Shown here piece after piece: positions 20,580 through 41,991 of a stretch of DNA of 64,000 bases (its first letter is position 1; each line of letters begins with the position of its first letter). The stretch spans positions 1,983,818 to 2,047,817 of the forward strand of contig CAWFNZ010000004.1 of assembly GCA_963817365.1 (NCBI GenBank). The letters are read 5' to 3'. The notes under the pieces were generated by a model. The model was not told where the DNA came from. It saw only the letters and a program-made list of their open reading frames with translations, and made no database searches. A program made the translations under genes and the position numbers. The DNA comes from an uncultured Alphaproteobacteria bacterium (GTDB taxonomy: Bacteria > Pseudomonadota > Alphaproteobacteria > Rhizobiales > Rhodomicrobiaceae).

Positions 20580-21103
20580 CGTGACACTACTTTCCTATAG
20601 GCGACAGTTAGATGCTTTAAAGACACGCTTAACAAGGAAGCTTGCGCCTTGTCAAATTTTATGTGGCTTGCCGTCTGGCTAGCTAGTGCGCTGATTTGTA
20701 ATGCTAAACATGTGGCACGCCGGACATTCCGCCAACGGAGGCGTACCCGTTACAATTTGCCGCGAACTATTGCCATCGGCGTTTTAATGCTGTAGCTAAT
20801 AAATATAAGTGTATGTTCTAGTGGTTGCAAAGAGGAGAAGTTTGCAACTTACGAAGAAGAGGCCGCACGGGTAGGTAGTAACGCGGGATGGGGGCAACTA
20901 TACAACGGAACAACTACAAGTTGGTACACTAAAGCCGTATTCACGCGGCGATGCGCAGGCACAGCGCACTCTGAAGTTTGCAGAAGCATAGAGGTCTGCC
21001 TGAATGGCAGGTCATATAACGGGCCGGGCACACACGTTTCCGGGACACGGTAGAGTTGTGTTCGAGTTGCCTTTGGTATAAACGGGCGGGTTGGGGTTTT
21101 TGG

Positions 21104-22912: not shown

Positions 22913-22995
22913 CGCGCGGCGCTTCCGCTATTGCAACTGGCGCCCCGTCCGAGGCAGGCGCCGCTGAAAAGGTTCAAAAGGGTTTGGTGAGTACG

Positions 22996-25566
22996 ATGTC
23001 GAAGATCGAAAGCTTTTCAAAAGCGTTTGCTTCGGGGCTGCCAGCAGTCGCGGCGGTAGCCTTCGCGGGATTGCTGCTGGCGCCGGGGGCAGCCCTGGGG
23101 CAAACCCCCAATCAGTCGGCAGTTAACAGCTCCTCGGGCCCGGCGCCGATCGTCAATATTGCTACCCCAAACACCCCGGGGGGCGTCTCGCACAATATTT
23201 ACCCCGGTTTCAACGTCTATTCCAACGGCGTCATTCTCAACAACAGCGCCACGGGAGGCACGTCATCGGCCGGGACCAACAAGATTACAGTTACAGGAAA
23301 TACCAATCTTACCGGAGGCACCGCCGGTTTGATCCTGAACGAGGTTACGAGCACAGGCGGGGCATCTACGCTGGCCGGCTTGCTTGAGGTCTTCGGCACC
23401 AAGGCCGATGTCATTGTGGCCAATCCGAACGGCGTCACCTGCGATGGCTGCGGCTTCATAAACACCCCGCGCGTGACCTTGACGACGGGCACGCCAAATA
23501 TTGACTCTGGTGGGGCGCTCACCGGCTTCACGGTTGGCACCAGCAACCAGGTAATCATCGGCGGCAATGGAGCCGATATCTCGGGCCTGCAGACATATTC
23601 CAATAATAACGGGAACGTGCCGACATATTTCGACGTGATCGCGAGCTCGATTTCGGTGCAAGGCAAGATCGGAACGTCCGGCGCTAACCAATCGGTCGAG
23701 ATCGGCCTGTTCGCCGGGAGCGACTTCAATTACAACTCGCGCACGGTGGCGGGCTCCACCTCTAGTGCGCCGGCAGTTGCCATCGATTCCAGCGCGGTGG
23801 GCGGAGCTTACGCGGGCAGGATTCAGCTCATCTCCACGCAGGACGGTGCCGGTGTCAAAACCCCCACCATGCAGACGGGCAGCGGCGGCATCACCATCAA
23901 CGCGAAGGGCCAGATCGTCTTCAACAATGCCGCTCAGGGGGGCACGGGCGGCATCACGGCCGACTCGAGCGGCTCGAACGGCGGTATTTCAGTAAATAAC
24001 TCGGTTTCGTCGCAGGGTATCACCAAGCTCACCTCTTCGGGAGACTTGACCAACGCCAATGCGATCTCTGGGCAGTCGGTTACACTGACGGCCTCGGGCA
24101 AGCTGGTTAATCAGACCACCAGCTCCAGCGTCACTTCCACCCAGGACATGACGCTTTCCGCGAACGCGCTCAACAACGCGGGTAGCATCTCCGCTGGCAC
24201 CACGCTTGGCGTGACCGCAACGGTTGATTTGACCAACACCGGGCAAATCACCGGGCAAACCACCGGGCCGGGCATCACCACCGTCTCGACCACCGCGGGA
24301 GACTTGACCAACTCCAACGTCATCTCGGGTAAGACGCTGAAACTTGCCGCTTCGGGAACCTTTAAGAACCTGGCGGGCGGCCACGTGACCTCCACCCAGG
24401 ATATGACGCTTTCCGCGAACACCCTCAACAACGATGACACCATTCAAGCCGGCACCACGCTTGGGGTGACCGCCGCCAATTTGACCAATACTGGCACCGT
24501 TTCGGGCCAGTCGATGAACCTTGGCGTTTCGGGCACGCTGGACAACCAGGCAACGCTCACCACCACCACCGGCGATATGACGCTTTCCGCAAATACGCTG
24601 ACCAACGAGGGCGGCATCGCTGCGGGCACCACGCCTGGTGCGAACACCACGCTTGGGGTGACCGCGGCCAAGTTGACCAATACTGGTACCGTTTCGGGCC
24701 AGTCGATGAGCCTTGGCGTTTCGGGCACTCTGGACAACCAGGCAACCGGCAAGCTTAGCTCCAGCGCCGACATGACGCTTTCCGCGAATGACCTCACCAA
24801 CGCGGGCAAAATCAACGCCGGCACCACGCTCGGCGTGACCACAGGGGGCGATCTGACCAACATCGGGCAAATCACCGCCAACCAAGACGCCACGCTCAAA
24901 GTTCACGGCACCCTGACGAACGGCACCTCGCCAACCCCCGTCAACGCCACGATCCACGCGGGCGGCACGCTTAATATCCAGGCCGCCGTGCTCAAGAATC
25001 TTGGCGGCATGGACATCACCTTGCCGCGCGGAGAACTCTCCGGCCTGTACCTCATCATCAACGCCGGTAATGTGCAGAACTCGGGCAACCTGTTTGCCAC
25101 CAAAGACATGACCATCGGCTCGACCGGCGACATAGTGAACGAGATGGGCTGGATCAAGGTTGGCGGCTACCTCTCTATCACCGCCGGCGGTAATTTCGAT
25201 AACATCGTAGGCATGATCCAAGCCAGCAGCGCCAACATCAACGCCCAGACCATGGAGAACGTCGTGCTGGTCCGCCTCGACGACGATCAGCTCCTCCCGA
25301 AGAGAAACCACAACGTTCTTAGGGCGATCACCAGCCAGAGCGTCGCTCAGGCCGTTGCGGGCTGGGACAAGTCCGTGCTGGCCAAGTTCGGGACCGTGGA
25401 CAACAAGGCGCTGGACACGCTCCGCCTGCAGCTTGGCGACCCCTTCTTGATACAGCAAAAACAGCAGCAGCAGGGCAAGGGCGCAGGCAACTTCCCGCAG
25501 CCAGGCCAGGGCGCGAGCGCCAAGCGCGCCGATGCAGCGGCGGGGGCACGGCCCACGGCCTTTTAG
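22996..25566 (+). CDS. Short TpsA exoprotein with filamentous-haemagglutinin N-terminal domain (~856 aa)
   Basis: Signal peptide, SHNIY, LILNEV, VANPNG, CDGCGFINTPR; FHA-type LTNxG repeats; no toxin domain recognised. Confidence 0.88.
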   Translation: MSKIESFSKAFASGLPAVAAVAFAGLLLAPGAALGQTPNQSAVNSSSGPAPIVNIATPNTPGGVSHNIYPGFNVYSNGVILNNSATGGTSSAGTNKITVTGNTNLTGGTAGLILNEVTSTGGASTLAGLLEVFGTKADVIVANPNGVTCDGCGFINTPRVTLTTGTPNIDSGGALTGFTVGTSNQVIIGGNGADISGLQTYSNNNGNVPTYFDVIASSISVQGKIGTSGANQSVEIGLFAGSDFNYNSRTVAGSTSSAPAVAIDSSAVGGAYAGRIQLISTQDGAGVKTPTMQTGSGGITINAKGQIVFNNAAQGGTGGITADSSGSNGGISVNNSVSSQGITKLTSSGDLTNANAISGQSVTLTASGKLVNQTTSSSVTSTQDMTLSANALNNAGSISAGTTLGVTATVDLTNTGQITGQTTGPGITTVSTTAGDLTNSNVISGKTLKLAASGTFKNLAGGHVTSTQDMTLSANTLNNDDTIQAGTTLGVTAANLTNTGTVSGQSMNLGVSGTLDNQATLTTTTGDMTLSANTLTNEGGIAAGTTPGANTTLGVTAAKLTNTGTVSGQSMSLGVSGTLDNQATGKLSSSADMTLSANDLTNAGKINAGTTLGVTTGGDLTNIGQITANQDATLKVHGTLTNGTSPTPVNATIHAGGTLNIQAAVLKNLGGMDITLPRGELSGLYLIINAGNVQNSGNLFATKDMTIGSTGDIVNEMGWIKVGGYLSITAGGNFDNIVGMIQASSANINAQTMENVVLVRLDDDQLLPKRNHNVLRAITSQSVAQAVAGWDKSVLAKFGTVDNKALDTLRLQLGDPFLIQQKQQQQGKGAGNFPQPGQGASAKRADAAAGARPTAF

Positions 25567-25690: not shown

Positions 25691-26184
25691 GAGCTGGGTT
25701 GGCGGCAGGGTTATGCCGGACCCGTCAGCCTGCTTTATTGCGGGCCGCCTTGTTCCGCCGGCCGATGAAAAGATCGACGCTCGCGGTTCGGCTAGTGCAT
25801 TGTTTTACCGTTATAAATACCAACTCCACCTATCTGTGGCAGCAGTCCACTGATAGTTACAACTTGGCGCAAACTATTGCCAATCGCGCCCCAATACCGT
25901 AGTTTCAGAAAATAGGTTCCTTAGTTCCGGAGATCGCGGGCGGGGCCGCATTGCAACGTGACGGTGATGCGCGCGCCTATCAGGCGATCGTATTTGCGGC
26001 GCGCGGGCAGCGCGTATGCTCAACGGATTTTGCCCCCCGCGGCTCCGCGCGCAGGCGGGCCTAACTTACAAGCGGTGACGCGGCGGGCCCTTGAGGGGCC
26101 TTGTGCCGCGCTTCAGCTACAGCAATCGGCGGGCAGGCTAAGGCCGGGCGCCCCGGTAACCAGAACAAGGGTTTGGTGAGGACG

Positions 26185-29100
26185 ATGGGCAAGACCGGGG
26201 GCTTCTCGAAGGCGTTTGGTTTAAGGCGGGCGGCGGTTCTGGCGGCAGCCTTGGCGGGTTTGCTGCTGGCGCTGGAGGTGTCCGCCCAGGGCGTCAAGCC
26301 CAGCACCACCGCGCCCAAGGCCAACCAGCCCACGGCTGGCAGCACCACCACTTCGAGCACCGGCAAGTCCGTCCCCAGCATCAACATCGTGGCCCCCAAC
26401 AGCAAGGGCGTCTCGCACAATATTTACAACCAATTCAACGTCGGCCCGAATGGCCTCATCCTCAACAACGCCACCCAGGCGGGCCAGTCCCAGATCGGCG
26501 GCCAGCTTGGCGCCAATCCCAATTTCACCGGCGGGAACTACGCCCACCTGATCCTGAACGAGGTCACCGGCGGCAGCGCCTCCTCGCTGCAGGGCTATAT
26601 CGAGATCTTCGGCCACAGCGCCGATTTCATCCTGGCCAATCCGGCCGGCGTCACCTGCAACGGCTGCGGCTTCATCAACACGCCGCGCGTGACCCTGACG
26701 ACGGGCACGCCGAACCTCGACGCCAATGGCGGGCTCTCCGGCTTCACGGTTGGCGGCAGCGGCCAGATCAGCATCGAGGGCGCCGTCGATATCACGGGCG
26801 TGCGGTATTTCGACGTGGCCGCGCGCTCGATCTTCGTGGGCGGAGAGATCGGCGACAGCGCCATGCAGGCCGAAGTGGGCCTGTTCGCCGGGCGCAACAA
26901 CTTCGATTACAACGCGCGCACCGCGGCGGCGCTTGCCGATGACGGCTCCGCGAAGCCTGCCTTCGGCATCGACGCGAGCGCGGGCAGCATCAAAGCAGGC
27001 AAGATCGCGGCCGTCAGCACCGAGAAGGGCGTTGGCACGCGCACCGGCAATTTGCAGGCGGGTGCCGGCGGTATGATGCTGACCGCGGACGGCAAGCTCG
27101 TGCTGGGCAAGACGCAGTCGCAGGGCGCGATTTCCGCCAAGTCGGTCTCGGGCGATATTCAGATCGCGGGTCCGCTCTGGTCGCAGGCCTCGCTCGATCT
27201 TTGGGCGGGCGGCAATATCGGCCTGCTCGCCCAGGTCTCGGCCGGGGCGCTGGGCAACGTGAGCGTCACCGCGCAGGGCCTTACCTTGAACGCCGGCGCG
27301 GTGCTGGGCGCCGGCCTCGATGCCGCAACGGGCAATTTTACCGGCGGCGGCGCGCTGACCGTCGCGGCGGCGAGCCTTTGGAACGCGGGCACGGTACGCG
27401 CCACCCAGAACGTGACGCTTGGGCTTACGGGCGTGTTGAACAACCAGGCCACGGGCACGATCCACGCGGATGGCACGCTCACCGTCAATGCCGCCTCGCT
27501 TGAGAACTACGGCAGCGCAAACCCGGGCGGGCCGCAGGGCGAGATCTCCGGCCAGATGCTTGTGGTCAACGCTGGCGATATCGCGAACGCGGGCAAGCTG
27601 CTGGCCAGCCAGGCCCTGACCATCGCCTCGTCCGGCCAGGTGATGAACGCGCTGGGCACGATCCAGGCCGGCGGCAGGCTCTCGATTGCCGCCGCGGGCA
27701 ATGTCGAGAACCTGTCGGGCGCGATCCAGGGCCAGGATGTCGCGATCAACGCCCAGACCATCGATAATTTGACGCTGGTGAGCCGCAACGGCCAGCTGAC
27801 GCTGCCCACGGAGTTCGCGGGCGCGTCGAGCCAGAGCTTGCAGGCCCTGTTCGGAACCCAGAACGGCGCGTTCCTGAACGGCCTTGGCGTGCCGCTTGGC
27901 GGGGCGGCCGCTGCCACCCCGAAGACGGTCTCCTGGTTCGGGCTGGACCTTGCCGCCGCAAGCCAAGGCTCCTTCACCGGCACCGCGGCCCAGCAGGCAG
28001 CGATCGGCGCCACGAACGGCGTGACCCTCAACGCCAGCAAAGACATTAACAGCGTGGGCGGCAAGCTCAGCGCGGGCACGGACCTCAACCTCAATGCGGG
28101 CGGCAGCGTCAGCATCCAGGCCGCGGAGCTGACCGGCACGTCGTCGAGCACCACCCATCTGGGGTCGGCGCTCACCGCCGGCGGCAGCGTCACCGTCAAT
28201 GCGGGCGGCGATGTCACCATCCAGGGCTCCACCGTCACCGCGGGCAAGAATGCCCAGATCGACGCGCAAGGCCAGGTGACGCTCCTGGGGGTCCAGGACG
28301 AGGTCAAAACGGACACCCGTCACACAAGTTGCGGCTGGTTCGGCCTCGACTGCAGCAGCTCGGGCAGCGTCAGCGATACGGTCACCGCTCTTGCCGCCAC
28401 CGTCAATGCGGGCGGCTGGATCGCGATCAAGGGCAAGGACATTGCCGGCAACGGCGCCAATATCGGCGCCCAGGGCAGCGTCACCCTGACCGCTTCGGGC
28501 TCCGTGGTGAACATGCTGGGCACCATTGCGGCCGGCGGCGGCGTCACGATCAACGCGGGCGGCAATTTCGAGAACCTGTCGGGCACCGTGCAGGGCCAGG
28601 ACGTCACGGTCAACGCCCAGACCATCGAGAACGTCACGCTGGTGCGCCGCGATGGCCAGTTGCTCTTGCCAGCCGAATATGCGGCCCTGCTCAAGATCGA
28701 TACCAGCCCAAGCGCCAGCGCGGCCCTTCCGGGCGTGCTGGCCCTGCTGAGCAGTCAGAACAGCACGCTTCTGAGCGCCTTTGGGGTCTCCGGCATCGCC
28801 GCCAGCAGCGCCCACACCGATGTGGCCGCCCAGCAGGCGGGGATCAGCGCCACCAATGGTATCACCCTCAACGCCCGCCAGGACATCAACAATGTGGGCG
28901 GCAAGCTCACCGCCACCAATGGCGATCTGGCGCTCAATGCGGGAGGCAATGTCAACGTCCAGGCCCAGGAGCTGAGCACCGTCCAGGACGCTAACAACTC
29001 GACAACCACCCATGTGAAGTCCGCGCTCTCGGCCGGCGGCAACATCACCATCAATGCGGGCGGCGATGCCACCATCCAGGCCACGGATATCAAGTCGGGC

Positions 29101-32100
29101 AAGAACACCGCGATCAACGCGCAAGGGGCGGTGACGCTTGGGGCGGCCCAGGACGAGACCAAGACATACTCCTCGCATCACAGTTGCGACTGGTTCGGCT
29201 GGAGCTGCTCCAGCTCGTCCACCAGCACCGACAACGTGATTGCGGTTACCACCACCATCAATTCGGGCGGCTGGGTCCAGGTGGAGAGCAAGACCAAGGA
29301 CATCCAGGCCACCGCCACCACGGTCAACGCGCAAGGCTACATCAAGCTGCTGGCGGATCTCGGCAATGTGATCCAGCAGGCAGGGCAGAACAGCAGCTAC
29401 TCGCATAGCTCCGGCAGCGACAGCCAGTGGTGGGGGCTCACCGGCTCCTCGCACTCCAGCACCGACAGTTCGACAACCATCGCGCCCTCTTTCGTCTCCG
29501 CCGTGGGCGACGTCCAGATCGTCGCGCATGCGGACTTCGTGCTCAAGGGCTCGGGCGTAAAGGCCGGCGGCAGCATCTTCATCACCGCCCAGAACATCGA
29601 CCTCATCGCACTGCAGAACACCACCTACCACTCCCAGATGGACGAGAACTGGGGCTTCTACGCAAGCGCCAGCGCGCAGTCGGGCAGCGCCAGCGTGGGC
29701 GTGGGCTGGCAGGACACGAAGACCACCAGCTCCACCACGGAGGGCCTCGCCCAGGTGTCGACCCTTGAGGCGGGCGGCGATATCGCCATCAACGCCAAGG
29801 GCGACATCAATTCGCAGGGCGCCATCGTGGCGGCCTCGGGCGACATCACCGCGGTGGCGGGCGGCGATATCAACCTGACGGCCGCCTACGACACCTACAC
29901 GGCAACGAGCAGCAAGACCTCCACGCAGATCGGCCTCACGCTCTCGGCCAACGAGAACGTCAGCTCGGCGATCAAGACCTTCGAGAACGCGCCCCAGGCC
30001 TTCAACGCGGGCCAGGGGAGTGCCACCAACAAGGGGATTACCCAGGCCTCCGAGGCGCTGCAACTCGTCGAGACCGCCGCCAACCTGGTCTTCGGGCAGC
30101 TGGTCTCGGTCAGCGCCAGCATCGGCTTCTCGCATAGCACCTCGGAGTCGAGCCTGACCGAGCACCTGGCGCATGCGGGCTACTGGGTGGCGGGCAACGA
30201 CGTCTCGATCGCCTCCGGCAACAATGTGAACATCGAGGGCACGGTGAGCCAGGCCGGGCGCTGCCTTTCGGTCGCCGCGGCCAACAACCTCACCATCCAG
30301 TCCGCGCTCTCGACGGTCGACCAGAAGACTTCCTTCCAATCGGAAAGTGCGAGCGTCGGGGTCTCCTTCGGCGTGGGCCTGACGGGGTTTTCGCTCGCGG
30401 GGAACGCCAGCGTTGGCTTCCAGACCGGCGACAGCTCCATGCACCAGGTCACCAATGTCATGTCGCAGCTCTCGGGCGGCACGGTGACGCTGAAGTCAGG
30501 ACGCGATACCACCGTGGCGGGCGCAACGGTCACCGGCGGCACGGTCACCGCCGATGTGGGCGGCAACCTCTCCGTCGAAAGCCGGCAGGATACGCTCACC
30601 TCGCGCAACAGCCAGACCGGGTTCAGCCTCGGCATCGGCATCGGGCTCGGCAGCGTGTCGTCCACCGCGGGGCCGGGCAGCTACGCCCCCAACACCAATT
30701 TCCTGAGCGATACCGGCGCCATGTTCAGCAACGCCGGCAGCTTCCTCGCCAGTGGCGGCCCCTTCGGGAATGCCGGCCCGGGTTCGCTCACCAATGCCGG
30801 CAACGGCAATGCCCCGCTCAAGAACACCGGCAGCATCGGCTTCACCTATGTGCGCGGCTCCGAGGACAAGGCCTGGACCAACAACCTGACCACGATTAAC
30901 GGCACCAGCGGTACCACGCTTAACGTGGCCGGCAATACCAATGTGAAGGGCGCCGTCATCGAAAGCAGCGGGGGTGGCCCGCTTGCCGTCAACACCGGGA
31001 CCTTCACCTACCAGGACATCCACGATTACGACAAGACGCAATACATCAACGCCAGCTTCAACGTCACGATCCCGCTGGGCAGCTTCGACTGGCAGAAGAA
31101 TGCGCCCGCCCCCGGCGGAGCGCCTACCGCCGTGGCGCCGCCGCCCCCGCCCACGCCGTCCATGCTGGCGCAGCTTGGTCAGGGGCTGGCCCAGGTTGGC
31201 CAGTACCTGGGGCAGTATCCCACCAAGTTCCAGCTTGCCTACAAGGCCACGGATAAGGAAGGCATAACCTACGCCACGGTTGGGGCAGGCAGCATCAACG
31301 TCAGCGATACCGCCAAGCAGGCGGCGCTTGAGAAGAGCGGCGCAACGGGCCCGCTCGCCAAGCTCAACCGCGATGTGACCAAGACGCAGATCGTCACCAA
31401 GAACACGACCGAGGCCTTCAACATCTTCGTGTCAACTCAGGCGCTTGGAACCATCGCGACGCTCGCCTCGAAGGCGGCCCTCTTCATCGACGATATGGTG
31501 AACAAAGCGATCCTGACGGTTGACGAAGGCGCACGGGTTAAAAAGATTCTCGATTATATCGCAGCAAACGGCATGCCTGCGGCTATTTGCGATGGCCCCG
31601 GAGGATCGGCGGCGCCGGGGCAAAGCGGCTTTCTGGATAAGTTGCGCGGATTCATCATAGCGCCAGCTTATGCTGCGAATGCCCTAACCGGTTGTCAGCT
31701 GTATTTCACTAACAGCAGATACTACACTACCGACCCTGCGGCTTGGGAAACCGCCCGATGGACCATAACGAATGAAGCAGCTCAGACTTTAAGTCCTGAA
31801 AATCTGGCCCGATATAACGATCTTCAGGCGCAAGTCGACAGCGGCCAGATTTCCTCTAACAATCCAGACTACGTCAATCTCAAACAACAACTTCTCGTTG
31901 CTGCTTCCATTTATGAACTCTGCAACACCGACCCCGGCTCATTGAGGGCTTCTGGCGTATTCAACTCGGCGCCAAGCCTTTATAACGACGTCCTGTTTGC
32001 GGAATCCGTCCGGCGTGGCGGCGACCTCCTTGCCACCAGGATGGCGAGCGGAGATCTGGCAATCGGTGAATACTGGAGAGCTGTCCTGCTCCCACTTGCC

Positions 32101-33609
32101 GATCTCCGCGAGAATCCCATAACCGGCTCAGGGCGATTAGACGGCACAGGGCAATTCGCGCCCAACAACAGCGTGTTAGCGGCCTTCATGTTTGCAGGCA
32201 TCGACGCATCGACACCGCAGGGTCAGGTCGATACGATCACGCAAGGAGCCATGAGCCAGCTTCGGCTGGCTACGGGGTATTCGACCGACATCATTGCCGA
32301 GAGGCGCATCCAGGCGGTCGTGGATTTAGTGTGGGGAGGGCTCACGACAGACCAGAAGAACACTTTTAATCTTTGGTACGAGAGCGCCGGCCTGCAGAGT
32401 TGGGCAAACGAAAATCAGGCAAGGGCCGACAAATTAGAGGCGCCATTATACACGGTACTCAAAGTAGAAGGCGCCGTCGCGGCACCATTCCTAGTGGCCG
32501 CGTACGCGCCGGCAATTGCTGGCGGGGTGGCCATTGGCGAAACCTATTACACGGTTCGTCAGTTGGCGACCGGCCAAGAGGTGACGCCAGAGGGCCTGGC
32601 TCTTAATGGAGTCCTCTTTGGTGTCACTGGTGGCGCCTTCGGCTATGCCTACTCTCTCGCCCCGGAGGCTGCACTGTTAACGGCGCGGACGGCCTTAGGA
32701 ATTGGGAGCATCGACTTGGCGGCGCAGGCAACCAATTTGCCCAATATGACCGCCCAGGAGAGGAATGGGTTTTATGTCGATACCGCCTTCTGGTTCGCCG
32801 GATACGGAGGCTACAGGTGGGCAAGCGCCGGGACTGCGGAACCCCTGACACCGCCTGGTTCCGTCGCGATGTTGCCGGCTCCCGATGCGATGGGTGTGGC
32901 GGCGCGCACCATATATGTTGATGGAGCAGGCGATGCATTCGTTGGTAAGTTGCCGCCCGCAGGCTCTAGCGGCACCACATTTTATGGCGATGCATGGGGC
33001 CGCATATCTTCCAATCTTTCTGACCTTGATCCTTACGTAGCCCAAAGCACGGCCAAGCTCCCTTGGAGCCTGCAGGCACTGAACCAGGATTTGGCCACGC
33101 AACAGGCCAACGATGCACGCATTGGAACGACATTGGACGGAGCGCAGGCTCCAATCGTGGTTGTGGCGGACGGTACTGTCGCCGGTCAGACTTTCACCAG
33201 CACCAATCAGACAGCGCGCCCGGCTGGGTCAGCCGATCCAACTCAGCCCAGCTTGATTTCCGGTTCGGTTCAGACGGGTGCGCCAAACTCAACACTAGGG
33301 GACTTGCATGCAGAAATGGACGTGATCCAGCAAGCCGCCAATAAGAATTTGACCCAAGGTCAGGACATGACTATCACCGTCAGTGGCCAGAGTGTTTGCC
33401 CTTATTGCAGGAGCAACTTAGGCGATATGGCAGATGCCGCCGGCCTAAACTCGTTGACTGTTTACGATACCGCCACAGGATACGTGCGTATTTGGGTAAA
33501 AAATAGCGATGGTGGCGGGACATGGACGAACATTCCTGGGACGGAGCCCCTGGGGCCTACCTCTACAACAACGACGCCTCTCCCATTTAGGTCATATCAA
33601 TTCAAATGA
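26185..33609 (+). CDS. CdiA-like TpsA polymorphic toxin (~2470 aa) with C-terminal cytidine-deaminase-fold domain
   Basis: TPS domain (LANPAG, CNGCGFINTPR), long FHA repeats, then HAE (33307) and CPYC (33397) zinc-deaminase motifs. Confidence 0.88.
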   Translation: MGKTGGFSKAFGLRRAAVLAAALAGLLLALEVSAQGVKPSTTAPKANQPTAGSTTTSSTGKSVPSINIVAPNSKGVSHNIYNQFNVGPNGLILNNATQAGQSQIGGQLGANPNFTGGNYAHLILNEVTGGSASSLQGYIEIFGHSADFILANPAGVTCNGCGFINTPRVTLTTGTPNLDANGGLSGFTVGGSGQISIEGAVDITGVRYFDVAARSIFVGGEIGDSAMQAEVGLFAGRNNFDYNARTAAALADDGSAKPAFGIDASAGSIKAGKIAAVSTEKGVGTRTGNLQAGAGGMMLTADGKLVLGKTQSQGAISAKSVSGDIQIAGPLWSQASLDLWAGGNIGLLAQVSAGALGNVSVTAQGLTLNAGAVLGAGLDAATGNFTGGGALTVAAASLWNAGTVRATQNVTLGLTGVLNNQATGTIHADGTLTVNAASLENYGSANPGGPQGEISGQMLVVNAGDIANAGKLLASQALTIASSGQVMNALGTIQAGGRLSIAAAGNVENLSGAIQGQDVAINAQTIDNLTLVSRNGQLTLPTEFAGASSQSLQALFGTQNGAFLNGLGVPLGGAAAATPKTVSWFGLDLAAASQGSFTGTAAQQAAIGATNGVTLNASKDINSVGGKLSAGTDLNLNAGGSVSIQAAELTGTSSSTTHLGSALTAGGSVTVNAGGDVTIQGSTVTAGKNAQIDAQGQVTLLGVQDEVKTDTRHTSCGWFGLDCSSSGSVSDTVTALAATVNAGGWIAIKGKDIAGNGANIGAQGSVTLTASGSVVNMLGTIAAGGGVTINAGGNFENLSGTVQGQDVTVNAQTIENVTLVRRDGQLLLPAEYAALLKIDTSPSASAALPGVLALLSSQNSTLLSAFGVSGIAASSAHTDVAAQQAGISATNGITLNARQDINNVGGKLTATNGDLALNAGGNVNVQAQELSTVQDANNSTTTHVKSALSAGGNITINAGGDATIQATDIKSGKNTAINAQGAVTLGAAQDETKTYSSHHSCDWFGWSCSSSSTSTDNVIAVTTTINSGGWVQVESKTKDIQATATTVNAQGYIKLLADLGNVIQQAGQNSSYSHSSGSDSQWWGLTGSSHSSTDSSTTIAPSFVSAVGDVQIVAHADFVLKGSGVKAGGSIFITAQNIDLIALQNTTYHSQMDENWGFYASASAQSGSASVGVGWQDTKTTSSTTEGLAQVSTLEAGGDIAINAKGDINSQGAIVAASGDITAVAGGDINLTAAYDTYTATSSKTSTQIGLTLSANENVSSAIKTFENAPQAFNAGQGSATNKGITQASEALQLVETAANLVFGQLVSVSASIGFSHSTSESSLTEHLAHAGYWVAGNDVSIASGNNVNIEGTVSQAGRCLSVAAANNLTIQSALSTVDQKTSFQSESASVGVSFGVGLTGFSLAGNASVGFQTGDSSMHQVTNVMSQLSGGTVTLKSGRDTTVAGATVTGGTVTADVGGNLSVESRQDTLTSRNSQTGFSLGIGIGLGSVSSTAGPGSYAPNTNFLSDTGAMFSNAGSFLASGGPFGNAGPGSLTNAGNGNAPLKNTGSIGFTYVRGSEDKAWTNNLTTINGTSGTTLNVAGNTNVKGAVIESSGGGPLAVNTGTFTYQDIHDYDKTQYINASFNVTIPLGSFDWQKNAPAPGGAPTAVAPPPPPTPSMLAQLGQGLAQVGQYLGQYPTKFQLAYKATDKEGITYATVGAGSINVSDTAKQAALEKSGATGPLAKLNRDVTKTQIVTKNTTEAFNIFVSTQALGTIATLASKAALFIDDMVNKAILTVDEGARVKKILDYIAANGMPAAICDGPGGSAAPGQSGFLDKLRGFIIAPAYAANALTGCQLYFTNSRYYTTDPAAWETARWTITNEAAQTLSPENLARYNDLQAQVDSGQISSNNPDYVNLKQQLLVAASIYELCNTDPGSLRASGVFNSAPSLYNDVLFAESVRRGGDLLATRMASGDLAIGEYWRAVLLPLADLRENPITGSGRLDGTGQFAPNNSVLAAFMFAGIDASTPQGQVDTITQGAMSQLRLATGYSTDIIAERRIQAVVDLVWGGLTTDQKNTFNLWYESAGLQSWANENQARADKLEAPLYTVLKVEGAVAAPFLVAAYAPAIAGGVAIGETYYTVRQLATGQEVTPEGLALNGVLFGVTGGAFGYAYSLAPEAALLTARTALGIGSIDLAAQATNLPNMTAQERNGFYVDTAFWFAGYGGYRWASAGTAEPLTPPGSVAMLPAPDAMGVAARTIYVDGAGDAFVGKLPPAGSSGTTFYGDAWGRISSNLSDLDPYVAQSTAKLPWSLQALNQDLATQQANDARIGTTLDGAQAPIVVVADGTVAGQTFTSTNQTARPAGSADPTQPSLISGSVQTGAPNSTLGDLHAEMDVIQQAANKNLTQGQDMTITVSGQSVCPYCRSNLGDMADAAGLNSLTVYDTATGYVRIWVKNSDGGGTWTNIPGTEPLGPTSTTTTPLPFRSYQFK

Positions 33610-33633
33610 GTTCATAAAGGTGGGTCTGAAGTC

Positions 33634-34092
33634 ATGAAACGCTACGAACTCATGCTGAGTGCTACTGCTGCAATCGGGGGAGGCGCTTCTGCCATTTACC
33701 CTCTCTGGTCCGATGTTGAAATGGGCATCGAGCGGGCATTTCAATATGGAGGGCACGTAACTTTAGAGGCCGGAGTGCTAAGCGTAACGCGCCTCAATGC
33801 GCTCGTGACGAAAGAGGCCATTGACATGGAGGCGAAATCCGGAAGGTTTAGAATAGTTGTTTCTCCCGAACGAGAACCCCGTCAGAAGACGAACTTGCGC
33901 GAATGGTGGGAACCGGAAGACAAGCCGTTTCGCGGCACTGAACGGTTCCGGGATGACGAATGGGATTCCAGAACCGTTTGCACCGATATTTCCGTAGCCA
34001 AAGAGATGTTCAAGGATTTTTTCGATAATCGCGGGATCACCGAAACAATTCTAAATCAGACGCTGTCGGTTTGGGACCGCAAGCCGCGTTAA
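33634..34092 (+). CDS. Candidate immunity protein for the deaminase toxin
   Basis: 152 aa, starts 24 bp after the toxin stop. Confidence 0.75.
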   Translation: MKRYELMLSATAAIGGGASAIYPLWSDVEMGIERAFQYGGHVTLEAGVLSVTRLNALVTKEAIDMEAKSGRFRIVVSPEREPRQKTNLREWWEPEDKPFRGTERFRDDEWDSRTVCTDISVAKEMFKDFFDNRGITETILNQTLSVWDRKPR

Positions 34093-34620: not shown

Positions 34621-37600
34621 GGGCGGCAATATCGCCATCGACGCCAAGGCCGGCATCAACTCGCAAGGCGCGATCGTGGCCGCGTCCGGCGACCTGACGG
34701 CGAACGCGGGCGGCAACATCAACCTGACGGCCGCCTACGACACCTACACGGCAACGAGCAGCAAGAGCTCCACGCAGATCGGCCTCACGCTCTCGGCCAA
34801 CGAGAACGTCTCAAGCGCCATCAAGACCTTCGAGAACGCGCCCCAGGCCTTCAATGCGGGCCAGGGGAGTGCCACCAACAAGGGGATTACCCAGGCCTCC
34901 GAGGCGCTGCAACTCGTCGAGACCGCCGCCAACCTCGTCTTCGGGCAGCTGGTCTCGGTCAGCGCCAGCATCGGCTTCTCGCATAGCACCTCGGAGTCGA
35001 GCCTGACCGAGCACCTGGCGCATGCGGGCTACTGGGAGGCAGGCAACGACGTCTCGATCGCCTCCGGCAACAATGTGAACATCGAGGGCACGGTGAGCCA
35101 GGCCGGGCGCTGCCTTTCGGTCGCCGCGGCCAACAACCTCACCATCCAGTCCGCGCTCTCGACGGTCGACCAGAAGACTTCCTTCCAATCGGAAAGTGCG
35201 AGCGTCGGGATCTCCTTCGGCGTGGGCCTGACGGGGTTTTCGCTGGCGGGGAACGCCAGCGTTGGCTTCCAGACCGGCGACAGCTCCATGCACCAGGTCA
35301 CCAATGTCATGTCGCAGCTCTCGGGCGGCACGGTGACGCTGAAGTCGGGACGCGATACCACCGTGGCGGGCGCAACGGTCACCGGCGGCACGGTCACCGC
35401 CGATGTGGGCGGCAACCTCTCGGTCGAAAGCCGGCAGGATACGCTCACCTCGCGCAACAGCCAGACCGGCTTCAGCCTCGGCATCGGCATCGGGCTCGGC
35501 AGCGTGTCGTCCACCGCGGGGCCGGGCAGCTACGCCCCCAACACCAATTTCCTGAGCGATACCGGCGCCATGTTCAGCAACGCCGGCAGCTTCCTCGCCA
35601 GTGGCGGCCCCTTCGGGAATGCCGGCCCGGGTTCGCTCACCAATGCCGGCAACGGCAATGCCCCGCTCAAGAACACCGGCAGCATCGGCTTCACCTATGT
35701 GCGCGGCTCCGAGGACAAGGCCTGGACCAACAACCTGACCACGATTAACGGCACCAGCGGTACCACGCTTAACGTGGCCGGCAATACCAATGTGAAGGGC
35801 GCCGTCATCGAAAGCAGCGGGGGTGGCCCGCTTGCCGTCAACACCGGGACCTTCACCTACCAGGACATCCACGATTACGACAAGACGCAATACATCAACG
35901 CCAGCTTCAACGTCACGATCCCGCTGGGCAGCTTCAGTTGGCAGCAGCCGGCTCCCCCATCAGACCCGAATGGCGGCGGGCAGACCGCTAGAGCGCCCGG
36001 CAATCCGCCGGCACCGCCCACACCGTCCATGCTGGCCCAGCTTGGGCAGACCCTGGGGCAATACCCAGCCAAGCTGCAGGTCGCCTACAAGGCCACCGAT
36101 AAGGAAGGCACAACCTTCGCCACGGTGGGTGCAGGCAGCATCAATGTCAGCGATACCGCCAAGCAGGCCGCGCTGGAGAAGGACGGCAAGACCGGGGCGC
36201 TCGCCAAGCTCAACCGCGATGTGACCAAGACGCAGGTTATCACCAAGAATACGACCGAGGCCTTCAATCTCTATCTGTCGACCCAGTCAATCCAAACGGT
36301 GGCAGCGATCGTTCAGAAAGCTGCGAGCTATATCGACGCGCTCGTTAGCACGGGGAAACTGAGCCCTGAACAGGCGCAGCAGGCTAAGAAGGTGCTCGAC
36401 ACCCTGCTCAGTGCCGGGGACATACTAGGCTTTAAAATTTGCGATGGAAGCTCCGGCGGGTCGCAACAAGGCTTCTTGCACATTCTGCATGATTTCATTA
36501 TCAGCCCGGCTTATGCCGGCGCCCAGCCGGGAAGCGGCTGCGTATTGATCCAGAAGGGCAGCAATGCGCTGTTCGATTTCAATCTCGACCCGGCTACCTA
36601 CGACGCGACTCGCCAGTCCATAGCTGACGCGGCCAAGGCCCGGGTCGCCGACGATCAGGCCCAGATCGTCGCACTCCAGGCAGATAGCACCATTGACGCC
36701 GACAGCAAGCAGCAGCAAATCGACAAATTGCATAACGACCAGCTTAATGCCGCGTCGACCTTCGAGCTTTGCAGCAAGAACCCTGGCGAGTTGAAAGCCC
36801 AAGGGATTCTTGACGGCATCGTCGATCCTAACAGCAATTTTTTCGCGGAAGCCGAATCCCTCAGGCGCGGCGCCGATCTGATGGCGTCGAACCTGCTTAC
36901 GGAGCACAATAGCGGCGTCGCCGGACCAGCAACCAAATTGTGGATTGCCACCGAGCAGCAATCCAGTAAAGCGGCGCAATTGAGCGTTGCGTACTTCCTT
37001 GGGGTTAATGGCACCGATACGGCCGCGCAGGCCCAGTCAATTATCGACCATGCCGTTGCGATGCTAAATGGCTCGTTTGGCGATAAGTCCATGCTCATGC
37101 CCGGGGGGTGGTCCAACGGCCAGAACACCGCCGATAAAGGAATACTCGTTCTGCAAGTTCTGGCCTACGCCTCTCCCGTACTGCCGGCGGACGACCGTGC
37201 AATTTTGAGGCAGGAGGTCGTAGACTCCGGCCTTTTCGCTACGGCCCTGAATTTTATAAACCAGGGCAACGCGGTGCAAGACGCCACGAACAAAATTCTT
37301 GGTCCCGGCGTCGCAGGGGGCAATGCGGTTGCGTTCGCTATTTTCGGCGTGCCCGCATTGGCAGGCGCGGCAGTCGACGGCAGCAGCGCACTGGCAAGCT
37401 GCGTGACAAATATCGCCTGCCGTGCCTACCTCTATATCGAAGGCACCGCCGCATTGGAGTCCCTCGCCAATCCGGGAGCGGTTCCGGTAATCACGGGCCT
37501 TGCCGGCGCGGCCCGGCTACACCGCAAAATTGACCGGCGCCGCCGATCTCGCGGAAAACCTCGCAAGCGACTTCCTTAATCTGGAACTGCGCGCGAATGC

Positions 37601-38111
37601 CCTTGCTGGCGGCGCTAGCCGTGACCTTCCTAAGGCCGCCTGGGCCATAGAGGACGCTGTGCGCCAATCTGTTCTGATTCAGAGCGGGTCTGACACTTGC
37701 GGTCCAGCATGCGCCGCCTATGTCGCAAACAAACTAGGTTTTGATGCAGTTACCGAGCAGTCTATTATAAAGGCGGTCGGGAGCGATCTCACCAATGCGG
37801 GAGAGCTTGCAGGAGCGTTAACCGACCAAACAGGCCGAACCTTTATTGGAGGCGCGCTGGCGAGAGTCGTTCCAGAAGCAGACATAACCGCGTGGGTTGC
37901 CGCAAGGACAAATCAAGGCGATCAACCATTTATGACTTTATTTTACGGGCCCAATTCGTCGGCAACGTCAGCAGGGCATTGGGTTGTCGTTGAAGGGGTA
38001 ACTCCCAGCGGAAATATCGCCATTCTCGACCCCGCCGGATTGCAGTATACTATGCAACCAGATGCATTTTTCAGTGCCTGGAAATGGCAAAATCTTGTTT
38101 TAAAGCCTTAA
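34620..38111 (+). pseudogene. Orphan TpsA C-terminal module with C39-like cysteine peptidase toxin; no N-terminus; +1 frameshift at ~37513
   Basis: 34620-35935 nearly identical to tpsA 29770-31085; C-terminus QSGSDTCGPAC...GHWVVVEG...ILDP. Confidence 0.82.
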
Positions 38112-38526: not shown

Positions 38527-39724
38527 AGGACGAGACCAAGACATACTCCTCGCATCACAGTTGCGACTGGTTCGGCTGGAGCTGCTCCAGCTCGTCCACC
38601 AGCACCGACAACGTGATTGCGGTTACCACCACCATCAAGCAGACGATGCAGGCGGGGCGCTCGTACGGGGGGCGGAATCAAGCGCTGGCAATGCCGCATC
38701 GAAAGAGCTAGCCTCGGCCGCGGATTTTGCCAAGCCGGAAGTGCCAAGCGTACCAGAGGTAGCAGTCGAACCGAAATTCGAGGCGCCCAAGGCTCCAGAG
38801 ACGGCGCAGGCGAAGATCGAAGGCGCAGGCGCGCCCGAGGTAGCAACCGAACCAAAATTCGAGGCACCCAAGGCTCCGGAGACGGCGCAGGCGAAGATCG
38901 AAGGCGCAGGCGTACCCGAGGTAACAACCGAGCCGAAATTCGAGGCGCCCAAGGCTCCAGAGACAGCGCAGGCGAAAATCGAAGGGGCTGGCGTACCCGA
39001 GGTAACAACCGAACCGAAATTCGAGGCGCCCAAGGCTCCAGAGACAGCGCAGGCGAAAATCGAAGGGGCTGGCGTACCCGAGGTAGCAACCGAACCGAAA
39101 TTCGAGGCGCCCAAGGCTCCAGAGACGGCGCAGGCGAAGATCGAAGGCGCAGGCGTACCCGAGGTAGCAACCGAGCCGAAATTCGAGGCGCCCAAGGCGC
39201 AAGAAACGGCGCAGGCAAAGGCCAACCCGGAGGCGGCGCCAGGACCGGAGGTGGCCACAGCCACACCCAAGGATACGGCGCCAAAGGTGGAGCCCGCATC
39301 GCAACCACAAATATCCTATCAAGGTCCGGGATCAGTAGAGCGTGGGGCGCTGGACGATAAGGAATTTCAACAGGCGCAAGAAATTGTACAATACCGGGGA
39401 GGGAAGTTTGTCGGCAACGACGTTCCAAACGCTCCCGGCATCGATGGCCAGCTGGACGGTGTTCCGGTCAGTCTGAAGGAAACTAGCTCGTCCGATGTCG
39501 ATGGCTTGATCAGAGAGGCTAGACGAGCCCGTAAAAGCGCTTCAGACGCTGGATATTCAGGTGTTGAAACCTATATTAAGGCGCCTAATATTTCTATTGA
39601 AGATATATCGAACGCTCCAAACATCGATCAATTGCTGAGCATTCCCAAGGGAACTATTTCTTCAGTTACCATCATGGGGAATGACGGTGTGCTTCGAATT
39701 GTACCCGGAAAGATTGTGAGGTGA
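38527..39724 (+). pseudogene. Orphan toxin module: tpsA patch + Pro/Glu/Ala/Lys repeat linker + PD-(D/E)xK nuclease (CdiA tRNase-like)
   Basis: 38527-38638 identical to tpsA 29150-29261 but out of frame with the C-terminus; GIDGQLDGVPVSLKE...AGYSGVETYIKAPN. Confidence 0.7.
38768..39215 (+). repeat. 81-bp coding tandem repeat, ~5.5 copies
   Basis: Units start at 38768, 38849, 38930, 39011, 39092 and 39173; encode EPKFEAPKAPETAQAKIEGAGVPEVAT. Confidence 0.95.
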
Positions 39725-40255
39725 ATGATGACTCGCGCATTAAGTGTCCCGATACAAAATAACCATATATGTGTGCCAAATTGCAACATGCGCCTCAATG
39801 AGGCAGCAAAAGCTATTACCAATAGCAATATTGATATATTATTTTCTATCGAAAATGAGCGCGGGGACATTTTTGATCATACAGTATGCTTTGGATGTGA
39901 TAATGCTAATATAATTAAGATGCCCGAGTTTGGAATTTTTACTAAGGTATTATGGATAGAGTGATCGGACTTCTCTTTCGATGAAAAGCACTATTCTCTT
40001 AGTAGTGTATTCTTCGATGTGCCAAAAGGAAGAAGCCATCTGGGATATTTTCTAGTTGCATGCATAGCTGTTGTGTTGTCTGAGGCATCGCTGAACATAA
40101 TCGAGGACTCGTCCAATTTTTGGGTTAATAAAGAATTTATTAATACGCAAGAATTCTTGGAGAGGGTGCGTAGACCGCGACTGCATGGAGAAGAAATAGA
40201 TATTTCTAGGTTGATAGAAGCGTTTTATTCCAATCTAAACTGGGCCACTGTCTAA
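39725..40255 (+). pseudogene. Candidate immunity gene with an in-frame TGA
   Basis: ORFs 39725-39964 and 40019-40255 share a frame and are separated only by TGA 39962-39964. Confidence 0.6.
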
Positions 40256-40299
40256 ATTGGCGTCGGAGGTGGCCTGCAATCTGATCGTCACCGTCACGG

Positions 40300-40409
40300 T
40301 TGTTCAGCGGCCTACTCTTCACCCTCGGATGTGGGAAGGTGTCACGCCTAGCGGTGTTAAGGTACAAGGATACCTTTCTCAAAAGGTTACCGTCTATCCA
40401 TTGTACTGA
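40300..40409 (+). pseudogene. C-terminal tail of an EndoU-like toxin
   Basis: Reads ...HPRMWEGVTPSGVKVQGYLSQKVTVYPLY*, resembling the ends of bacterial EndoU toxins. Confidence 0.5.
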
Positions 40410-40421
40410 GAGGCTTGAGCA

Positions 40422-40802
40422 ATGAAATTGACGTTTTTCTGGGCGAACAGAATTGGAATAATAAGGCCTTACTGTAGTCCGGCCGATAAAGATGGCAAAG
40501 ATCTTCTTGCCTGCCTGCTGATGGATGATGGAGGATTGAGCCTTAGTGCCACACTGGCTTGGATCGATGATGGCATCGCTATGATAAAGGCCGTCATGAA
40601 GGGCGAGGTTGCCGATGGGGATTGGGATCGGGAGACATGGGGCGCAAAGCTGAAGCCCGATGACGTTGAGATATGCTCATTATATGATGAGAGCTACTCA
40701 GAAGTGGTTTCGAGTTCTACGTTCCAGCACGCGTTGCAGGCTTGGCGGGAGTTCATTCAGTCAACACCCGACGTCAATACCGTTCTGGAGGTAGACGTCT
40801 AG
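40422..40802 (+). CDS. Candidate immunity protein (EndoU-like module)
   Basis: 126 aa, 12 bp after the toxin tail. Confidence 0.65.
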   Translation: MKLTFFWANRIGIIRPYCSPADKDGKDLLACLLMDDGGLSLSATLAWIDDGIAMIKAVMKGEVADGDWDRETWGAKLKPDDVEICSLYDESYSEVVSSSTFQHALQAWREFIQSTPDVNTVLEVDV

Positions 40803-40857
40803 AGGTTCTCGCGACAGTAACGTGACGGCCTTACAGCGGCCGGTTGCGGTTGTACCG

Positions 40858-40902
40858 ATTTGCGTTGGGACATATCATAGTTAATGCGAGTATGGTAAAC
40901 GC
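40858..40902. repeat. 33-bp core site, copy B (no leader)
   Basis: ATTTGCGTTGGGACATATCATAGTTAATGCGAGTATGGTAAACGC; shares ~12 bp of upstream flank with copy A. Confidence 0.85.
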
Positions 40903-40904
40903 TG

Positions 40905-41159
40905 GTGAGTGATGAAAACTTCGACGCGTTTGTTAAGAAGCGGGTGGCGGAAACGCCGGGAGGAAGCGGGGCACAAATTGAGGAGGTTGCTATGAAGCAA
41001 GAGCGAATTAGGGCCCGTGGCGTATCACGAACGTTTGAAAGCAATCTTTGGGATCAAGTCTATCCTTCCTTACCCGCCGGGGATGTGACCAAAATCCAGT
41101 TTTCAATCGTTAAGCCAAGTTCGCCGTTCAACACTGGTCCATTCATCCCGATTCGGTGA
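40905..41159 (+). pseudogene. Probable toxin C-terminal fragment
   Basis: 84 codons beginning right after core site B and overlapping the next ORF; family not recognised. Confidence 0.4.
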
Positions 41160-41596
41160 TATCATGTCACGCCAACCGGGGGCTAGTTCTCGGGGCGAGA
41201 GGCCATGGACCGAGGCATTACAAGCCGGAGCGAATTCTGTCTGAGTATACAATATTTTCCCTTATGATCGACACCCGCCTGAGTGAGGCTGAGCTGTTTC
41301 GTGCGCTTGTTGACGGCCTTTCAAACACCGAGCAGGTTGGGGGGTACATTAAGTACAAAAACAATGTGCTGAAACTAGATATAAACTCGATGCATGACGA
41401 TAAGATAGTTGCAGAACGAAATGAAAGATCCTGGATGTACTATAGATACGAACTGGTCGTATTTATTGATGGCCAAAGTGCATTTAGTGATGACAATGCC
41501 GCTTTAGTACATCAGAGAGAGGTTGCGTTAAATATTATAACTCTACCGCAAAAACTCGGCGCAACCATAGAATTCGTAGCGGAATTTGAGTTGTGA
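41156..41596 (+). CDS. Candidate immunity protein
   Basis: AT-rich small ORF in the array; real start may be ATG ~41264 (MIDTRL). Confidence 0.5.
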   Translation: MISCHANRGLVLGARGHGPRHYKPERILSEYTIFSLMIDTRLSEAELFRALVDGLSNTEQVGGYIKYKNNVLKLDINSMHDDKIVAERNERSWMYYRYELVVFIDGQSAFSDDNAALVHQREVALNIITLPQKLGATIEFVAEFEL

Positions 41597-41991
41597 GCGA
41601 CCAGAGCAAACTACCTGAATTGTACGTAGCTACCGATGTTGAAGCTGATGGGCCAATTCCTGGTCCATATAGTATGCTATCGCTGGGTATGGCGGTGGTT
41701 GGGTGGCCCGAAATCTCGTTTTATACGGAAATGAAGCCGATCTCGGAAGAGTACGTGCCTGCCGCTTTGGAGGTGTCGGGCCTAGATCGTAACCGGCTCC
41801 TAGAAAACGCACCATCTCCACGTGAGGCAATGATGGCTGCGTATGGATGGATAAATGGATTGAGAAAATTTGGCCGGCCAGTATTCCTTGCTGGTCCAGC
41901 GGTTTGGGATGGAATGTTCGTTCATTGGTACTTTGTGCGATATGTCGGGACAAGCCCCTTTGGATCAACAGGGTCAGGCATTGACTTGAGA
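41593..41991 (+). pseudogene. DEDD 3'-5' exonuclease (Rv2179c-like) interrupted by IS1595
   Basis: YVATDVEADGP, SMLSLG, AVWDGMF...GIDLRS, then the IS inverted repeat. Confidence 0.75.

Follow-up and report, generated by a model that had tools for sequence, protein, structure and literature searches.

We analysed a 64,000-nucleotide stretch of contig CAWFNZ010000004.1 from an uncultured alphaproteobacterium of the family Rhodomicrobiaceae, referred to here as the window, and found in it a two-partner secretion (TPS) exoprotein gene that ends in a zinc-deaminase tip and is followed directly by a candidate immunity gene. The locus probably encodes a contact-dependent, TPS-delivered polymorphic toxin, with a MafB19-type Deam_C deaminase tip that acts on cytosine in DNA and a DUF6911 protein as its antidote. 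As such it is a further example of a catalogued toxin/immunity pair and not a new kind of deaminase toxin. The features that carry this reading are as follows.

33079 to 33510, plus strand: deaminase toxin domain, residues 2327-2470 of the exoprotein (Pfam PF24241 Deam_C; 53% identity to the tip of the metagenome protein L001)
33307 to 33315, plus strand: HAE motif with His2403 and Glu2405, at the N-terminus of a predicted helix (translation and alignment)
33397 to 33408, plus strand: CPYC motif with Cys2433 and Cys2436, at the N-terminal end of the predicted helix that follows (translation and alignment)
33511 to 33609, plus strand: 32-residue Thr/Pro-rich C-terminal tail and stop codon; the tail lies beyond the family profile, is missing from L001 and was modelled with a predicted local distance difference test score (pLDDT) of 50-56
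33634 to 34092, plus strand: candidate immunity gene, 152 amino acids, ATG start, divergent DUF6911 (PF21852) member (Pfam, synteny and model against PDB entry 6ANZ)
26101 to 33609, plus strand: tpsA/cdiA-like exoprotein gene, 2,502 amino acids (Pfam and NCBIfam matches)
21056 to 22912, plus strand: tpsB/cdiB-like outer-membrane transporter gene, 618 amino acids (Pfam ShlB, E = 5e-77; POTRA_2, E = 4.5e-21; POTRA_3, E = 8.8e-15)

Translation of the 26101-33609 open reading frame (ORF) reproduced the end of the product that an earlier note on this DNA had quoted (...TNQTARP...PNSTLGDLHAEMDVIQQA...MTITVSGQSVCPYCRSNL...). The motif layout of the tip is HAE-x27-CPYC, with the codons of His2403 at 33307-33309, Glu2405 at 33313-33315, Cys2433 at 33397-33399 and Cys2436 at 33406-33408. 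When the last 202 residues were compared with Pfam, PF24241 Deam_C matched over profile positions 3-128 of 136 with 113.6 bits (E = 8.3e-33), the curated gathering threshold of this family being 27 bits. The same profile matched residues 2350-2468 of the whole exoprotein (E = 2.7e-31) and reached 114.5 bits at this locus in a six-frame genome search. Because an E-value of this size comes together with a 30-residue motif spacing that recurs in relatives, the HAE/CxxC tip is an observation far beyond chance. Weak Pfam matches of the tip were to MafB19-deam (E = 1.4e-4), dCMP_cyt_deam_1 (E = 0.017), XOO_2897 (E = 0.05), SNAD4 (E = 0.07) and APOBEC2 (E = 0.1). In addition, an hhalign comparison with TadA proteins of related genomes gave a probability of 80% (E = 1.4e-5), with HAE aligned on HAE and CxxC on PCxxC. 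The strong PF24241 match, the weak matches to several deaminase families and the TadA motifs in register agree with the zinc-deaminase assignment of the earlier note, and membership of the tip in this superfamily is well supported at the sequence level. To place the boundaries of the toxin, we used L001, a 2,564-residue metagenome CdiA that is otherwise unrelated and is 53% identical over 144 residues, confined to residues 2327-2470; for this reason we regard 33079-33510 as the mobile toxin module. The earlier placement of the toxin start at 33100 was nearly right, the shared module beginning slightly further upstream, at ~33079 (residue 2327), and ending at ~33510.

Relatives were sought among 1.84 billion representative proteins with a cut-off of E <= 1e-3, and 229 clusters at 50% identity were found to carry the Deam_C domain, nearly always at the C-terminus of host proteins of 80 to 6,595 residues. 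The 30-residue spacing from the H of HAE to the first Cys (HAE-x27-CxxC) was kept in most of the best 150 relatives. In an alignment of 81 sequences, numbered by the 169-residue query, N36, A71, E72, C100 and C103 were invariant and H70 nearly invariant, and the window's domain was 33-57% identical to the aligned relatives. Deam_C tips were found on CdiA proteins with TPS, VENN and DUF637 domains, on Rhs and PAAR proteins and on Neisseria MafB proteins; such a spread over several delivery scaffolds is the hallmark of polymorphic toxin domains. The Deam_C-bearing ORF of Neisseria gonorrhoeae also matched Pfam MafB and contains VSGDF, which we take to be the class-1 MafB boundary motif.

The candidate immunity gene begins 24 nt after the toxin stop codon, and a Shine-Dalgarno-like AAGGTGG lies 9 nt before its ATG; neither a promoter-like site nor a coding-strand terminator-like site was detected in the intergenic stretch. 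Its product matched DUF6911 with 32.2 bits (E = 1e-7; gathering cut-off, 24 bits), and a 55%-identical homologue directly follows a TPS/DUF637/Deam_C CdiA on two metagenome contigs. We then extended the comparison to 74 loci, namely 73 Deam_C loci from GTDB species genomes and the window's own ORF, and the ORF directly downstream of Deam_C was a DUF6911 member in 65 of them. The exceptions include several short or truncated ORFs, and three that continue the toxin frame. The genomes compared were those of Pseudomonas, Neisseria, Haemophilus, Serratia, Erwinia, Photorhabdus, Burkholderia, Xanthomonas and Minicystis, among others, and the N. gonorrhoeae MafB and Minicystis rosea loci both have the Deam_C-DUF6911 arrangement. 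Furthermore, a structural model of the 152-residue protein (pLDDT 88.7) had a sole significant match in the PDB, 6ANZ, with template modelling (TM) scores of 0.61/0.64 over 146 columns. 6ANZ, whose PDB entry has no functional annotation, has the same sequence as the DUF6911 product encoded right behind the MafB-Deam_C gene in N. gonorrhoeae DSM 9188 (L018:611-1027), and is most likely a MafI-type immunity protein. The earlier note had put forward the downstream ORF as the immunity candidate, and its membership in a family of the type found after Deam_C in most loci supports the view that 33634-34092 encodes the cognate immunity protein of the Deam_C toxin. A further DUF6911-like homologue lies at L003:6001-6378 and shares 67% identity with the protein of the window. 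It belongs to a row of small ORFs that come after a PT-HINT toxin, no Deam_C gene is close by, and an orphan immunity gene within a poly-immunity array is the probable explanation.

The exoprotein has the architecture of a TPS substrate. A TPS domain was found at residues 71-333 (Pfam, E = 1.9e-41), together with Fil_haemagg_2 repeats (Pfam, E = 3e-72) and a match to NCBIfam TIGR01901 (E = 7e-19). The frame opens at TTG 26101, and the true start is likely ATG 26185, directly before the signal peptide. As in CdiA systems, the TPS domain is accompanied by an Omp85-family CdiB/TpsB partner, encoded upstream at 21056-22912, and the locus has a polymorphic C-terminal toxin, an adjacent immunity gene and an orphan module downstream; the description as a TPS-delivered CdiA-like toxin was therefore upheld. 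No PT-VENN, DUF637 or PT-HINT pre-toxin domain was found in the 2,502-residue product by Pfam scan. Since there is no such demarcation and the product diverges only gradually from the orphan copy, we call it 'CdiA-like'. The sequence SLYND (residues ~1959-1963) was considered as a Burkholderia-type (E/Q)LYN boundary and rejected, as the main and orphan modules can still be aligned past it.

Two further observations concern this scaffold. A gene for a short TpsA of 886 residues lies at 22906-25566 on the plus strand; apart from a TPS domain it has no recognisable domain, and it lacks a toxin tip. It begins within the last tpsB codons, and the two exoproteins may share one TpsB. Directly upstream of the toxin domain, at ~32400-33050 (exoprotein residues ~2100-2320), there are Gly/Ala-rich hydrophobic segments such as VAAPFLVAAYAPAIAGGVAIG and LNGVLFGVTGGAFGYAYSL, and segments of a similar kind occur in the orphan module at 37200-37500. 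They matched no Pfam family and may form the membrane-translocation region used for entry into the cytoplasm.

To examine the fold of the tip, an AlphaFold2 model was built with the family alignment as input (pLDDT 90.2; predicted TM score 0.83). The model contains strands 22-27 and 30-35, a long ordered loop, helix 71-81 beginning with HAE, strand 88-95, helix 101-113 beginning with CPYC, hairpin strands 116-123 and 128-134, and strand 140-145. With HAE at the start of helix 2 and CPYC at the start of helix 3, the motifs stand where they do in zinc deaminases of the cytidine deaminase fold. The order strand 1, strand 2, loop, HAE helix, strand 3, CxxC helix, strand 4, strand 5 corresponds to the deaminase core of the C-terminal-hairpin type without the N-terminal helix 1, and the predicted topology is compatible with a deaminase fold. 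The Deam_C family is nevertheless far from every solved deaminase, DddA, SsdA and DddB included. Of the two kinds of search that the earlier note had proposed, the profile searches were strong for Deam_C, while the structure searches returned no significant match to any solved deaminase; its refuting condition, a predicted fold other than a deaminase, gave an ambiguous answer, since the topology is a fitting one.

Which catalogued family the tip belongs to matters for its substrate. The MafB19 clade was defined by an N at the end of strand 2, HxE, a V at the end of strand 3, +xxCxxC and a G at the start of strand 4, with a C-terminal-hairpin topology and delivery by MafB, a secretion system of type V (T5SS) or one of type VI (T6SS) (Iyer et al. 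2011, PMC3239186). The window's domain has N36 just after strand 2, HAE, V99 before C100, G115 before strand 4 (116-123) and the strand 4/5 hairpin; the '+' position is Q here, and K or R in many relatives. The C-terminal domain of the N. gonorrhoeae DSM 9188 MafB protein scored 213 bits on Deam_C and ~26 bits on PF14437, the Pfam family named 'MafB19-deam'. In four Neisseria genomes (G236-G239; L117-L120), PF14437 scored 120-127 bits on ~240-residue ORFs and also matched ~370-residue ORFs, which are probably the housekeeping TadA and RibD, respectively. Sub-threshold PF14437 matches in these genomes (~21-26 bits) lay solely at or near Deam_C loci, exactly so for the N. gonorrhoeae MafB tip, and PF14437 matched 12 of 14 control genomes. 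This scoring is in line with the NEB screen of deaminases, which notes a difference between the 'MafB19' profiles of Pfam and of Iyer (bioRxiv 10.1101/2023.06.29.547047). Judged by motifs and profiles, Deam_C most probably is the MafB19 clade of Iyer et al. The alternative is that it represents the sce3516-like clade described by Zhang et al. 2012, called 'MsddA-like' in the NEB screen, where HAE and a C-terminal hairpin are likewise present; the link to Neisseria MafB favours MafB19.

The same family can be followed into Escherichia coli, where a CdiA with a Deam_C tip and a DUF6911 gene is annotated as a 'cytidine deaminase-like fold-containing protein'. The E. coli Deam_C/DUF6911 CdiA proteins correspond to the CdiA C-terminal (CdiA-CT) 'type 17, MafB19 deaminase', which was listed as uncharacterised (Halvorsen et al. 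2024, PMC11630599). In three E. coli sequences (NZ_CM185151.1, NZ_CP027457.1 and NZ_CP027310.1), a Deam_C-tipped CdiA with a DUF6911 neighbour bears the RefSeq name 'contact-dependent inhibition effector tRNA nuclease', which was probably transferred and does not fit a Deam_C tip. Our literature search found nothing specific to PF24241, DUF6911 or BaDTF4/5. As regards novelty, the deaminase toxin of the earlier note turns out to belong to a family that is already catalogued: in Pfam as Deam_C, among E. coli CdiA-CT regions as type 17 and probably, by Iyer et al. 2011, as the MafB19 clade.

The following mechanism would account for these features. The TpsB/CdiB-like transporter (21056-22912) would export the 2,502-residue filamentous TpsA/CdiA-like protein, and its last ~145 folded residues (33079-33510), a putative zinc-dependent deaminase, would be delivered on contact into a neighbouring cell. 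His2403, Cys2433 and Cys2436 are expected to hold the zinc, and Glu2405 would serve as the proton shuttle. In the target cell, the domain would most probably turn cytosine to uracil in DNA, which could lead to C-to-T mutations or, via uracil excision, to lethal breaks, and the 152-residue DUF6911 protein would shield the producer by binding the toxin. We infer the DNA substrate from two sources. First, enzymes found with the Iyer 'MafB19' profile deaminated cytosine in single-stranded DNA (ssDNA) and double-stranded DNA (dsDNA) in vitro, often preferring CpG, and 'MafB19' and 'MsddA-like' were both among the five families with clear ssDNA/dsDNA cytosine deaminase activity (bioRxiv 10.1101/2023.06.29.547047), so that either candidate family for Deam_C was active on DNA in that screen. 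Second, the characterised interbacterial deaminase toxins in the cited literature (DddA, SsdA, DddB, YwqJ and the Pseudomonas aeruginosa PABL083 CdiA-CT) act on DNA cytosine. The substrate, which the earlier note had left fully open between DNA and RNA, is less open in the light of the 'MafB19' screen.

Several points weigh against this reading. The top 50 PDB matches of the toxin model in Foldseek hold no solved deaminase (best E = 2e-3, TM ~0.3), a Foldseek search of BFVD gave weak matches to phage dCMP deaminases alone (E = 7e-3, TM ~0.3), and PDB searches with the single domain and with the 81-sequence profile yielded no relative beyond a marginal TadA (E = 1). S51, L69, N83 and N135 of the 169-residue query depart from nearly invariant, non-catalytic positions of the family, and the domain sits in a minority subclade with a short loop. 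The window's own ORF matches DUF6911 weakly, at 32 bits, and the equation of Deam_C with the screened 'MafB19' family was drawn from profiles and motifs, not from the screened sequences.

The lack of a significant structural match and the four substitutions would also be expected if the tip were decayed or inactive, or did not have a deaminase fold, and kept HAE and CxxC without catalytic function. We consider this the most improbable of the alternatives, given that the catalytic and zinc-ligand positions are all intact, that the frame is open over 2,502 codons, that the immunity gene is intact, with its own ribosome-binding site and with no promoter or terminator detected in between, and that the confident model arranges strands and helices such that both motifs lie at helix N-termini, as in deaminases. 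Hardly more probable is a toxin that deaminates a free nucleotide, a nucleoside or another small molecule and poisons the cell by draining a metabolite pool or corrupting it. In favour of this alternative, the proteins weakly matched by Foldseek are phage dCMP-type deaminases, and the weak Pfam matches of the tip include dCMP_cyt_deam_1; however, neither kind of match is significant, the Deam_C family is confined to toxin delivery scaffolds with a dedicated immunity protein, and the closest described clade acts on polynucleotides (bioRxiv 10.1101/2023.06.29.547047).

A deaminase toxin that acts on RNA has to be taken more seriously. Here the target would be cytidine or adenosine in tRNA, rRNA or mRNA, and growth would be inhibited by corrupted translation. 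TadA, a tRNA adenosine deaminase with the same TAHAE-type motif, is the closest canonical relative by profile comparison, and members of four of the five active toxin families had RNA activity above that of APOBEC3A (bioRxiv 10.1101/2023.06.29.547047). The loop that joins strand 2 to helix 2 is also short and acidic in the window's domain, compared with a longer and more basic loop in most members. The short-loop subclade to which the window's toxin belongs comprises 21 of 111 scored Deam_C members and lacks a ~5-15-residue, often Lys-rich insert before PNGNM-x-x-AHAE; the mean charge of the loop is about -1.2 in this subclade and +0.8 in the other members. Against an RNA substrate stand the NEB screen, in which the MafB19 type was one of five families giving nearly all detectable DNA activity (bioRxiv 10.1101/2023.06.29.547047), and the DNA targets of the characterised interbacterial toxins named above, and we regard it as unlikely.

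Cytosine in DNA is the substrate that we favour. Since the region between strand 2 and the HAE helix caps the substrate pocket in other deaminase clades, it is conceivable, if unlikely, that the short-loop subclade selects other substrates than the MafB19-type enzymes of the screen do (such as strictly single-stranded DNA or RNA, or another sequence context) and that its ~125-residue core would offer a new compact editing scaffold; this core is without a solved relative, hence the possibility that the scaffold is structurally new.

We then asked how the cassette is distributed. Among 39 species genomes of the window's genus, Deam_C and DUF6911 were each present in one, the same genome, and Deam_C was rare in the order (2 of 201 genomes). 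The guanine-cytosine (GC) content of the toxin/immunity cassette is 54%, compared with ~66% in the repeat body of the gene. Segments of the scaffold were 81-86% identical in two other genomes of the genus, both without Deam_C. An orphan copy of the C-terminal part of the gene lies downstream in the window.

34676 to 37579, plus strand: orphan tpsA C-terminal module (BLASTP against the main gene, 76% identity over 757 residues)

The first ~420 residues of this module are ~99% identical to residues 1243-1662 of the main-gene product, and divergence is gradual beyond residue ~1662; the module could serve as a recombination substrate for tip swapping. The low GC content of the cassette, its presence in a single genome out of 39, the Deam_C-less scaffolds in the genus and the near-identical orphan module would fit horizontal acquisition of the cassette and exchange of tips. 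The long frame of the orphan module (34676-38111 region, plus strand) has an Arg/Lys-rich end (…RLHRKIDRRRRSRGKPRKRLP*) that is apparently out of frame, and an ORF for a C39-like peptidase at 37500-38111 (Peptidase_C39, E = 2e-5) overlaps the module end in another frame. Together these two observations suggest a frameshift between the orphan scaffold and a cysteine-peptidase tip; a C39-like peptidase is the E. coli CdiA-CT 'type 21' (PMC11630599). Further downstream of the toxin modules, the region 39000-42000 is compositionally foreign, with a GC content of 0.48-0.50 (average, ~0.61) and a strongly positive GC skew.

The locus adds an alphaproteobacterial, TPS-delivered case to a Deam_C/DUF6911 pair that is widespread in Pseudomonadota and was still listed as uncharacterised in the 2024 literature on contact-dependent inhibition (PMC11630599). 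These results allow DUF6911 to be named as the immunity family that belongs to Deam_C toxins, and PDB 6ANZ to be labelled an immunity protein. The name 'MafB19-deam' of PF14437 is misleading for annotation, as this family found mainly TadA/RibD-like ORFs and the Neisseria MafB deaminase falls under Deam_C. No solved deaminase significantly matches the Deam_C fold, so an experimental structure of this family would fill a gap for base-editor engineering.

Compared with known systems, the window's toxin shares with DddA (BaDTF1, SCP1.201-like), SsdA (BaDTF2, DYW-like) and DddB (BaDTF3, Pput_2613-like) the position of a zinc deaminase at the C-terminal tip of a polymorphic toxin; each of these has an adjacent immunity protein and causes mutagenic or lethal C-to-U changes in DNA. 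The tip had no Pfam match at E <= 1 to SCP1.201 (PF14428), DYW or Pput_2613 and no sequence or fold match to the solved DddA, SsdA and DddB structures in the PDB, and the earlier impression that it is not DddA-like was correct. Its immunity family, DUF6911, and its delivery by T5SS also set it apart from these toxins, which are delivered by T6SS. The P. aeruginosa PABL083 CdiA-CT is closer in its delivery, being a CdiA-borne dsDNA cytidine deaminase with a cognate CdiI; the toxin is toxic in E. coli and partly rescued by the immunity gene (bioRxiv 10.64898/2026.09.30.755834). No sequence is given in the preprint. A CdiA of P. aeruginosa that carries the annotation 'MafB19-deam' and has a 133-residue CdiI is on record, so the PABL083 CdiA-CT may belong to the same family as the window's toxin. 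On the immunity side, the only solved DUF6911 protein, 6ANZ ('hypothetical protein from Neisseria gonorrhoeae'), has a fold like that of the window's immunity model, which shares only ~10% sequence identity with it and has a ~20-residue C-terminal extension and a different N-terminus. The nearest counterparts are the MafB19-clade toxins (PMC3239186), such as N. gonorrhoeae MafB and the E. coli CdiA-CT 'type 17' (PMC11630599). The window's domain differs from them in its short loop, in the Q three positions before the first Cys and in a unique Thr/Pro-rich tail, and its scaffold lacks a VENN or DUF637 pre-toxin domain and comes from an alphaproteobacterial host, where the family is rare. In common with them, it has the same profile and HAE/CxxC spacing, the N after strand 2, the V before the first Cys, the G starting strand 4, the C-terminal-hairpin topology, the use of T5SS, Rhs, PAAR and MafB scaffolds across the family, and the DUF6911 immunity gene.

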